Positions 6,001-8,924 of a DNA stretch of 8,924 nt are shown here, piece by piece (the first letter of the stretch is position 1; every line of letters begins with the position of its first letter). Position numbers: made by a program. The stretch lies in the IMG/VR virus record IMGVR_UViG_2731957997_000009; one strand, given 5' to 3'. Origin of the DNA: a virus. Its lineage: Duplodnaviria > Heunggongvirae > Uroviricota > Caudoviricetes.

Positions 6001-8924
6001 CGGTATTTTTGCTATATATTTAGGTCACCTTGGGTTGGGGGCTGGCAAATTGTATCCTTTTGTTTTTAGTTATCACGTCCCACTATTCTTTTTCGCTGCT
6101 GGTTTTTTTACTATCAAAAAAAATGACTTATCTGTTTTCGATTATATCAAGTCAAAGTTTTACAGATTAATGATTCCATATTTCACTTTTGCATTTTCTA
6201 TATTAATAATAAACACAATTAACTCAGGTGAGACGATTGATTATATATACAACCACATTTATGATATAATATATGGTGTTAGAAATAACCAATTCGTAGG
6301 AACAATATGGTTTATAAACTGCCTTTTTGTTATAATAGCAATTGATGCAATCTTTAGAGAAATAGTCAAGAACAATATAGTGATTTTAATCATATCACTG
6401 TTATCGTTCATGTTGTCACAAACAGTGCTCAATCATAACCCATTACTAGATCCTCAATGGTTTTGGAACATAGACTCCGCTATGGCATACTGGTGGTTAT
6501 TGCCTCTCGGTAGATGTATGTTTTTAGAATTAACACGTGACAGGTTTTTTGGAAAATCTAAAATTGGTTTCATTGTCTTCTCAATTACCGCTATAATGAG
6601 TGCGTATCAACTACTTAACCAGAAACCTTTACTTTTTAAGATTATCTCAATATTCAATGCAGACATAATATCAAGTAGTTATATTCAAGCTATTAATACT
6701 ATTATCACCACGGTAGGCTTGATAATCTTTAATATTTTCATAGCAAAAATAATTTGTGGAAATGACTTTATTGTAAGAGCTGGAAGAAATACTCTTAACA
6801 TATGTGGAATGGAGTATATCACCAAATTATTTATCCCTATGGCTTTAGCAATTATAGGCTTCAGCGTGACTATTCCAAATCCTATCTGCGCAATCATATA
6901 TACCTGTATTTGTGTATATGTATCAGATAAAATTGGCCATTGGCTATCGAGGACAGTCGGTGGGCCATTTTTGATAAAATGATAAAAAGGCGCAATTAAT
7001 TGCGCCTTTTTATAGATATATAGCGCATATTTATGCTCAGATTATACTGTTAAAATTAATGCGCAAATGTTACGGTTTTCTTTCCTAGCAACTGAAGGGA
7101 ATGTTCGAAGTGCAAACATAAAATTACCCCTTCACTGAACAGATATTCAGTCGACCAACACATGAGAAAGAAATACACCAGATGAATTAAAATATCATAT
7201 ACTTATTAATCAAAGAAATAAAAGCATAAACAGTAGGTGGTGACGCTGATAAACTGGCTATAAACAACCTGGAAGGTGATGAGCTATCGCAATATAATTT
7301 ATTGGCGAATTATTTGAAGCCAATTGATAACACCAGTGCTCAAAAGACTCCCCCCGGTAACCATAAGTAGCTAATATCTAGTACAGTTTCGATATCTATT
7401 ATCGTTACTGCGTCGATATAGTCTAAATAGCTGCACCTAATTCTGCCACACTTGTCGTTTACAGATGGGTAATGTGTTGCGTATGGGCAACAAAACTCAA
7501 GCCAGATATAACACAACCTAGCTGAGAACGCCTTCCTGATGCTTCGCCCAGCAAGGGCTGAGCGAAAGTGGAGCACTTTTCTGCGCAGCTATTTAGGACA
7601 GTATTGAGTCATATTGTTTATGTATGAGTTAAGTTTCGTAATATCAATTAAATAAAATAAGTTGAAATCATTGTAGAAGTGAGCATTATACCCAGGCTAC
7701 CTGAACCTACTGAAAAACGAGTATTATTCCAACAATTATCCTAGATTAACAAGTCTATTTATTTGGATGCATAGGCCACTCGGGTTTTACTACATTAACA
7801 CGCATAAGCAGCACCCGATATTTTTTCCATGCCAGTAACAGTTTCGTTTCATCATCTGTTGCCATACCTAAATCAACCGCATCCTGAAGCGGAGCTATTA
7901 CATTCGTTGCCTCTGCTATCAGTGCAGATTTCTTTTCATCATTTATTAAGGCTAATTGTTCTGGTGTTGGAGAAGGACGGTCAACAATGACAGGATGACC
8001 GTTCTCACCACAGGTAATCATTTTTGTTACACTCTGTGCATTAATCAGTGTTTTCCACTCTGATTCCGAGATTTCCACTGCATCATCAGGAATATTGGTG
8101 CCGTGAAATTCAGTCGAATAAAATCCGTTTGTCGATGCAGAATAAAAATATGACATTTTGTTAATATCCCATTGCAATGTAATACGCATCAGCAGATGAA
8201 CCGTATCCTGAACCGGGCGACACAGTAATATTAAATCCAGTGTTCTGGACACTTGTCGCCGATACAGTCGGCTGCCCAGCCGCGCCAGTAACGTTCAATG
8301 TAACTACGACAGCAATTACTCTTGAGAACGTCATCGGGAACCTCATCCCGTATGTTGAAGATACATTCGGGGCACCATTCAACTGACCGCACTGTAAAAT
8401 TAATCCAGACGGAAATTTTTGCGCAGCAGCCGTTACGGTATTAATTGACGCGAACAGGCTCATATCAGGTATCTGATTCGCCCCTGTACCTACATTCCTT
8501 TTAGCTGCTTCTCCCAAACCAAGGTTTTCGAGAGCCGTTTTCACCGTGCCATCCGATTTGATATCGCCAAACGGATTCTTGCGGCTTAACAGCAGCGCGC
8601 GAAGTGCGGTAAGCAACTGATCGTGCCGCCCCTTCTCCAGGCTGGCACCGGATGCCTCCACCACGCTGCAAAGCTCCTCCTGCAACATGTCAAAGTAGTC
8701 ATCATCCAGATCGGTGGCAGGCGTGCCAGTCTGGGGGTTACCACGGGTAAAACCGTTCTTACCCGCGCCGAACTTATCCTTCTTCGCGGTTTTCGTGTCT
8801 ATACGATGCATGGATTACTCTGAGGTGTACTGGCAATAGCGGACACTACCATTTGTTCTTTTTTTAAGCAGCCATCTGATGATATTTTTCCCTGAAGGCT
8901 GCCGGGGAGATATTCCCCAGACGA

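Follow-up and report, generated by a model that had tools for sequence, protein, structure and literature searches.

The 8,924-nucleotide (nt) stretch of viral DNA held in IMG/VR as IMGVR_UViG_2731957997_000009, referred to at its full length as the window, is, judging from its sequence, the SHI-O/SfII prophage remnant of Shigella flexneri, a serotype-conversion island. Near one end of it a short tail fibre gene and the gene for its assembly chaperone lie against the terminus of an insertion sequence (IS). We are highly confident that this locus is a remnant already described, in which the two genes are normal, full-length and orphaned. Positions 892-8820 of the window are collinear with positions 24898-16968 of phage SfII (KC736978 / NC_021857) at 99.7% identity, the homology beginning at 8820 and ending at 892, at the attachment (att) core. 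A gapped comparison gave 27 differences from the SfII record over 7.9 kb, with 0 within 7755-8820, and the entire window is 99.99% identical to the S. flexneri chromosome CP026788.1. The gene order is that of SfII, namely att core, gtrA, gtrB, gtrII, an ISSfl9-like IS4 element, SfII_25 (oacD), SfII_24 and SfII_23, so that the gtrA-gtrB-gtrII cluster, oacD and the thrW att core expected of an SfII remnant are all present and collinear with the phage (Table 1).

These observations agree with what has been published on this locus. In strains 301 and 2457T, SHI-O retains little SfII sequence besides the serotype genes (PMC1550401), and the SfII prophage carries gtrII and oacD and lies between proA and adrA (PMC8973906). 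Phage SfII itself was obtained by induction of strain NCTC 4, and its host range covers serotypes 3b, 5a and Y (PMC3772137).

The fibre is naturally compact

The fibre open reading frame (ORF) starts at the ATG at 8811-8809 on the minus strand, encodes 216 amino acids (aa) and ends at 8161, and the chaperone ORF that follows ends at 7755, as the sequence-only reading of this DNA had described. Both are real genes. The fibre gene shows 100% nt identity to SfII 16977-17627, and the segment 8820-7755, which spans SfII genes 23 and 24, matches the phage without exception, the first mismatch being at 7718. The fibre matches PHROG 1396 (tail fiber; E 4e-86), and in the records SfII gene 23 is labelled either 'short tail fiber protein' or 'hypothetical protein', with SF0311 of strain 301 given as a homologue in the SfI annotation. 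For the chaperone gene, tfa, the matches are to Pfam Caudo_TAP (PF02413; E 8e-26) and PHROG 188 (E 2e-51). A mechanical ORF call extends it furthest, to GTG 8252; the start most likely used is ATG 8156-8154 (MSYFYSAS...), 4 nt past the fibre stop, a choice favoured by the family alignments; that to PHROG 188 begins at residue 1 of the 133-aa version. The start differs between records, being ATG 8189 in SfII and the equivalent of GTG 8252 in SfV, SfI and SfIV; both of these longer versions run into the fibre gene, the latter by 92 nt.

From the small size of the fibre the earlier reading had suggested either that a shaft had been lost or that the protein is naturally compact. A degenerate fibre shortened by internal deletion would accord with the 504 aa of phage Mu fibre protein S and the 504 positions of the PHROG 1396 profile, of which two separate stretches are matched, the best aligning query aa 1-102 with profile positions 19-121. 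This explanation is nevertheless very improbable, given that the identical gene is carried by infectious SfII, that its counterparts in SfV, SfI and SfIV have the same length and that the one in Escherichia coli phage SKA5 has 215 aa. In SfII, SfV (orf21), SfI (gp23) and SfIV (gp20) the 651-bp gene directly follows a Mu gp48-like baseplate wedge gene, and the 648-bp version in SKA5 does so too; 14 complete E. coli genomes carry a ymfQ-family gene ahead of the fibre-chaperone pair. In a search of 5.8 billion proteins, nearly all of the 120 top-scoring homologues have 216 aa. An exhaustive search of 50%-identity cluster representatives returned 3381 relatives; among the best 150 the median length is 221.5 aa and no protein is longer than 400 aa, and the 36 representatives with both fibre domains measure mostly 190-250 aa. 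Full-length homologues of similar size were what the earlier reading had named as fatal to its shaft-loss proposal, and that proposal has to be dropped; its other alternative was right. The fibre is not truncated, because infectious SfII carries the same 651-bp gene and the full-length homologues are of similar size, and it is the naturally compact, full-length form for phages of the SfV/SfII type.

The arrangement is that of an SfV-like short fibre: about 200-230 aa, with the N-terminal domain joined almost directly to a gp53-like C-terminal domain, and a Caudo_TAP assembly gene next in line. The extended shaft and length of about 500 aa or more that characterise the long fibres of the Mu S and P2 H type are absent from the 216-aa protein. 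One feature of the short-fibre class is missing from the window, the Mu gp48-like gene directly upstream, which is present in the intact phages examined and of which just the last 6 nt (8820-8815) remain here. Its absence marks the decay of the locus and leaves the identity of the fibre gene unaffected.

Domains and probable receptor

The sequence-only reading had seen a conserved N-terminal domain followed almost directly by a C-terminal tip, and this description held. The C-terminal part (aa 132-216) matches Pfam PF21882 (Gp53-like_C) with 51 bits against a cut-off of 24.9. An alignment of the proteins of SfII, SfV, SfI, SfIV, SKA5 and 689R6 shows that the N-terminal domain, MHRIDTKTA...ALENLGLGE (about aa 1-105), is nearly invariant and that divergence sets in after about aa 105. 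At the nucleotide level the gene matches other E. coli and Shigella prophage fibres at 94-96% over its N-terminal 313-360 nt, beyond which identity stops, a break which by its position is the usual recombination boundary between a putative baseplate-attachment module and a putative receptor-binding module. Residues 37-129 also match residues 41-143 of Mu fibre protein S weakly (E 0.008). With the Mu gp43-48 set as its neighbours, gene 23 stands where Mu has S, and gene 24 where Mu has U.

In an AlphaFold2 monomer model (mean predicted local distance difference test score, pLDDT, 72) most of the C-terminal domain scores about 80-94 and residues 1-23 are disordered; the predicted fold is a helical N-terminal half followed by a beta-sandwich at 121-215. 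Foldseek placed this beta-sandwich with the foot of the R1/R2 pyocin fibres (6CXB, 6CL5, 6CT8, 6CL6) and with AP22 gp53 (4MTM), at E 3e-6 to 8e-5, the hits to 6CXB, 4MTM and 6CL5 falling between 3e-6 and 1e-5, with H-type lectins lower down in the list. Sequence and model together make it highly probable that aa 1-105 or thereabouts form a baseplate-attachment domain and that aa 132-216 form a lectin-like domain of the gp53/R-pyocin foot kind. The product of gene 23 would accordingly be a short, probably trimeric receptor-binding protein, whose C-terminal domain of about 90 residues most likely recognises the O-antigen/lipopolysaccharide (LPS), as suggested by gene position, the lectin-like fold and the literature, which treats the O-antigen as the receptor and its modification as a source of immunity (PMC3636060). 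In the free phage, a myovirus with a Mu-like baseplate, the N-terminal residues up to about 105 would dock to the baseplate, and gene 24 would supply the Tfa-type chaperone that folds the fibre.

An IS600 end replaces the upstream tail genes

The IS3-family terminus that had been noted 9 bp from the fibre start is exactly there, ending at 8821 with the spacer at 8820-8812, and the element is IS600. A complete IS600 of 1264 bp on an E. coli plasmid (locus L003, 633-1896; this and the other L numbers designate loci fetched for comparison) ends in ...GCCAGTACACCTCA, and the window has this terminus twice, at 8821 (minus strand) and at 536 (plus strand). The transposase coding sequence of the plasmid copy is annotated 'IS3-like element IS600 family transposase'; the Pfam matches to IS600 are HTH_Tnp_1 and rve. 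Within the window, the IS600 end at 8821-8924 forms an inverted repeat with 433-540, and in L007-L016 a full copy was seen at this position beside the fibre gene, of 1264 bp in L007-L011. Terminal sequence, inverted repeats, the length of 1264 bp and the pair orfA and orfB are thus all as expected of IS600, and its transposase is read in the same direction as the fibre gene.

In intact SfII just 3 nt separate the stop of baseplate gene 22 from the fibre ATG, within a long late operon, and a GGAG Shine-Dalgarno (SD) sequence overlaps the end of gene 22. The native junction, ...TATCCGGAGTAATCCATG, is found exactly in SfII, SfV, SfI, SfIV, SKA5 and 689R6, and in the window it is replaced by ...CACCTCAGAGTAATCCATG. 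The claim that no SD sequence lies in the spacer was therefore correct only in part: the GAG of the native GGAG is kept, and the native signal is indeed weakened, the predicted duplex with the 3' end of 16S rRNA going from -6.1 kcal/mol in the native junction to -2.4 kcal/mol in the window. The 38-mer across the IS600-fibre junction, GCCAGTACACCTCAGAGTAATCCATGCATCGTATAGAC, was exact in all ten chromosomal loci fetched, and the arrangement recurs in many genomes.

What lies on the far side of the fibre-side IS600 defines the extent of the loss. In L007 this is SfII int together with 3' xis, which match the phage at 98.8% as far as about SfII 26180. A single 1.26-kb IS600 therefore stands for about 32.3 kb of the 41.5-kb SfII genome, from the middle of xis to a point 6 nt short of the gene 22 terminus, a span that comprises 5' xis and the early, lysis, cos, head and tail genes. 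The flanks of the element, CTT and GAG, show no target-site duplication and therefore point to an IS-mediated deletion or to recombination between two IS600 copies rather than to a simple insertion; the lack of a duplication does not affect the identity of the element as IS600. A simple insertion of IS600 upstream of the fibre, with the tail genes still next door, has in its favour nothing beyond the fact that the window ends inside the IS, and it is the least probable of the alternatives we weighed and refuted for the genomes examined, the far side being SfII xis'-int and not gene 22 in ten chromosomal loci, the flanks not being duplicated and little SfII sequence remaining in published remnants (PMC1550401). 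The earlier reading had held that the upstream tail genes and the native expression signals are gone, and had proposed comparison with an uninterrupted homologous locus. The late operon is intact in the phage, the chromosome has xis'-int in its place, and the uninterrupted loci show that upstream sequence was displaced, so that this part of the reading stands. We propose that an IS600-mediated deletion, or recombination between IS600 copies, removed the approximately 32.3 kb including the late-operon promoter, and that the resulting junction shortened the ribosome-binding site (RBS) of the fibre gene from GGAG to GAG.

In 1663 of 3182 index blocks the longest contig carrying the fibre gene was 5-10 kb, a size consistent with draft assemblies in which IS600 repeats delimit a unique segment of 8.3 kb.

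Expression and survival of the orphaned genes

A consensus scan of 8924-8811 on the minus strand, which takes in the right end of IS600 and the spacer before the fibre ATG, found no sigma-70-like site, and thus no outward-facing promoter at this end of the element. A hybrid promoter built on the -35-like TTGCCA at 8836-8831 in the right end of IS600 was considered and rejected, there being no -10 at 16-18 nt, and a transcript from it would start past the ATG. In the complete IS600 the sole promoter-like site (TTAACG-17-TAGAAT) is at the left end and faces inward, and the scan of the transposase strand of the complete element gave no terminator-like site; the fibre ATG comes 52 nt after the orfB stop. 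A literature search on an outward promoter of IS600 or on expression of SF0311 retrieved nothing relevant. Because there is no promoter-like site near the ATG and no terminator-like site in IS600, it is a reasonable inference that read-through from the IS600 transposase is the only evident source of transcription for fibre and tfa. The transposase promoters of the IS3 family are weak. The two genes in the remnant would thus be silent or nearly silent, with at most weak transcription and poor translation, and their products would build nothing in the absence of a baseplate. Most likely they have persisted as hitch-hikers, flanked by IS600 on one side and by the selected gtrABII/oacD genes on the other.

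A different explanation is that the fibre-chaperone pair is a retained cassette, expressed by read-through from IS600 and kept by selection. Both ORFs are intact and free of differences from SfII, the IS600 transposase runs towards the fibre and no terminator-like site intervenes, and the N-terminal 313-360 nt shared with other prophage fibres would offer homology for recombination. We nonetheless consider it unlikely: the native SD is cut, no promoter is near, transposase promoters of this family are weak in general, the place of the pair between IS600 and the selected oacD/gtr genes makes hitch-hiking a sufficient explanation of its survival, and the excess of conservation is statistically weak. 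More unlikely still, by a little, is the extended form of this idea, that a cassette transcribed through IS600 is maintained in S. flexneri 2a as a host-range recombination reservoir for superinfecting SfV-like phages, or as an O-antigen-binding protein, secreted or cell-bound, that serves the host; what speaks for it is that the genes are intact and that there is a weak excess of conservation.

Some points do weigh against the picture of silent, hitch-hiking genes that encode an O-antigen-binding fibre. Fibre and tfa show 0 differences from SfII over 1,066 bp, when about 2-4 would be expected at the rate of the remnant, with a Poisson P(0) of ~0.03, which rises to ~0.10 when the differences clustered at 5517-5628 are left out. 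Intact genes are compatible with recency or with hitch-hiking, yet they also leave room for selection. The lectin-like assignment comes from a Pfam hit and an AlphaFold2 monomer model of moderate overall confidence, and the receptor specificity of gene 23 is a prediction. We examined whether fibre and tfa are conserved in excess of the rest of the remnant and found the case unconvincing, as P moves between ~0.03 and ~0.10 with the inclusion of a cluster that is probably an error. Hitch-hiking of silent or nearly silent genes remains our preferred explanation.

Other features of the remnant

The cluster just mentioned (5517-5628) holds 10 of the 27 differences from SfII, including a 2-nt indel, at one inverted repeat of the ISSfl9-like element; either a local hotspot or an error in the Sanger-era sequencing of SfII may account for it. 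Where oacD and tfa converge, a perfect palindrome of 32 nt (ATAAAAAGGCGCAATT/AATTGCGCCTTTTTAT) at 6982-7013 begins at the oacD stop codon and is given as a rho-independent terminator in the SfII annotation; its symmetric A/T runs could, on sequence grounds, terminate transcription in both directions. A 31-nt likeness to the left inverted repeat of IS600 at 7675-7705 was attributed to chance, since against the full IS600 it amounts to just a 10-nt exact match (E 0.73). Scans of the window for tRNA genes and for Rfam families gave no match; an intact thrW lies beside proA in L011, the CP026788.1 locus.

At the left boundary, the rearranged pair of IS600 pieces at 1-536 is also present in CP026788.1, and L007 and L010 have one complete IS600 there. 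An inverted target duplication at the two inverted IS600 ends, with arms extending 4 nt past the termini, was considered; as the flanks are GGGT and GAGT, the likeness was put down to chance. The integrase fragment at 537-895 does not derive from the int of SfII and is probably a relic of an older element at thrW, SfII's own int-xis' lying beyond the right-hand IS600 (L007 7383-8727). Together, the foreign fragment and the SfII int beyond IS600 would imply a tandem array of thrW-integrating elements.

Related arrangements were seen in other loci. The complete S. flexneri chromosome CP058589.1 (L008/L009) has the whole fibre-to-gtrA module twice in tandem, 12,065 bp apart, with IS600 at the boundaries of each copy. 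Beside SfII int (L010 2760-8606; L007 5922-8606), some strains have a P22-like prophage that brings a gtr cluster and a tailspike of its own, and other strains have a gene for a 390-aa acyltransferase, probably oacB, so that more than one serotype-modifying element has accumulated at this single site.

Table 1. Positions of the features of the window, with their identification.
Feature	Position	Strand	Identification and remarks
Further IS600 copy, first 141 bp	1..141	-	Left inverted repeat 141-112, orfA ATG 77-75; abuts the fragment at 142-536
Second IS600, 3' fragment (~nt 870-1264), 395 bp	142..536	+	Inverted; other boundary of the 8.3-kb SfII remnant
Tyrosine-recombinase (integrase) gene, 3' fragment	537..895	+	Pfam Phage_integrase; 73% nt identity to the SfII int copy in L007
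46-nt att core, 3' part of tRNA-Thr thrW	910..955	-	Common to SfI, SfII, SfV and SfX; reverse complement of the core in PMC3636060; no intact tRNA in the window (tRNA scan)
gtrA	1157-1519	+	Pfam GtrA_DPMS_TM; SfII annotation; O-antigen glucosylation operon of SfII (1157..3902)
gtrB	1516-2445	+	Pfam Glycos_transf_2; SfII annotation
gtrII	2442-3902	+	Pfam Glucos_trans_II; SfII annotation
IS4-family element, ISSfl9-like	4255..5576	-	Transposase 4292-5482; 31-nt terminal inverted repeats; also in free SfII
oacD (SfII_25), acyltransferase-3, GlcNAc 6-O-acetylation	5933..6982	+	Pfam Acyl_transf_3; SfII annotation; PMC8973906
Tail-fibre assembly chaperone (tfa), 133 aa from ATG 8156	7755..8156	-	SfII gene 24; Caudo_TAP; 100% nt identity
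Short tail fibre / receptor-binding protein gene, 216 aa	8161..8811	-	SfII gene 23, SfV orf21, S. flexneri 301 SF0311
9-nt spacer GAGTAATCC	8812..8820	-	Last two codons of gene 22 (GAG TAA) and intergenic TCC; GAG of GGAG kept
Last 104 bp of IS600 (IS3 family)	8821..8924	-	Runs off the window; orfB stop 8866-8864; right inverted repeat ends ...CACCTCA at 8821

Significance and comparison with known systems

A fibre that looks suspiciously short is the normal form for phages of the SfV/SfII type, and this matters little beyond correct annotation. It is useful for curating genes of the SF0311 type, which are often labelled 'hypothetical', and for interpreting 8.3-kb contigs bounded by IS600 in draft Shigella assemblies. 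The junction also defines how the serotype-conversion island of S. flexneri 2a was carved, with IS600 in place of about 32 kb and a junction that runs through the RBS of the fibre gene. The orphan cassette would be of interest in its own right only if it were expressed or if it recombined with incoming phages. The sequence-only reading had drawn attention to fibre genes lying beside the enzymes that modify the receptor; the two are indeed side by side, but this is nothing special, since SfII, SfV, SfI and SfIV are all laid out in this way as standard.

The known counterpart of the window is SHI-O of S. flexneri 2a strains 301 and 2457T. The window is that locus, it fits the published remnant that keeps mainly serotype genes, and we see no substantive difference from it, the extra IS600 rearrangement at the left boundary being confined to some strains. 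Compared with phage SfII, the downstream neighbours are alike (oacD, the ISSfl9-like IS, gtrII-B-A and the att core), whereas everything upstream of the fibre has been replaced by IS600. SfV orf21/orf22, SfI gp23/gp24 and SfIV gp20/gp21 share with SfII the 651-bp length, the position after gp48 and the native SD-stop-ATG junction, at a protein identity of 95%; they differ by a few substitutions in the C-terminal domain, by gtr type genes of another kind downstream and by having no oacD. SfIV retains an inverted extra tfa, and SfII has none. In SKA5 (L017 3010-5766) the same N-terminal fibre module is followed by an invertase and by inverted alternative fibre and tfa segments, a switch like that of the Mu G segment.

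Among more distant systems, S (gp49) and U (gp50) of Mu likewise come after gp48, and a Tfa-type chaperone follows the fibre there too. However, Mu S has 504 aa, a long shaft and a different tip, and the SfII fibre has neither a shaft nor an invertible G segment. The foot of the R-pyocin fibres and gp53 of Acinetobacter phage AP22 (4MTM) resemble the predicted C-terminal beta-sandwich, at a sequence identity of just 15-27%. R-pyocin fibres likewise require a Tfa-like chaperone, but they are about 700 aa long and have long shafts. A last parallel is the CPS-53 (KpLE1) remnant of E. coli K-12, arranged intS-gtrABS-tfaS-yfdK-yfdL; one homologue of the N-terminal region of the fibre is annotated 'YfdL'. 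CPS-53 is also a decayed serotype-converting prophage with gtr genes beside orphan fibre and tfa genes, and it differs from the SfII remnant in its att site and in the events by which it decayed.

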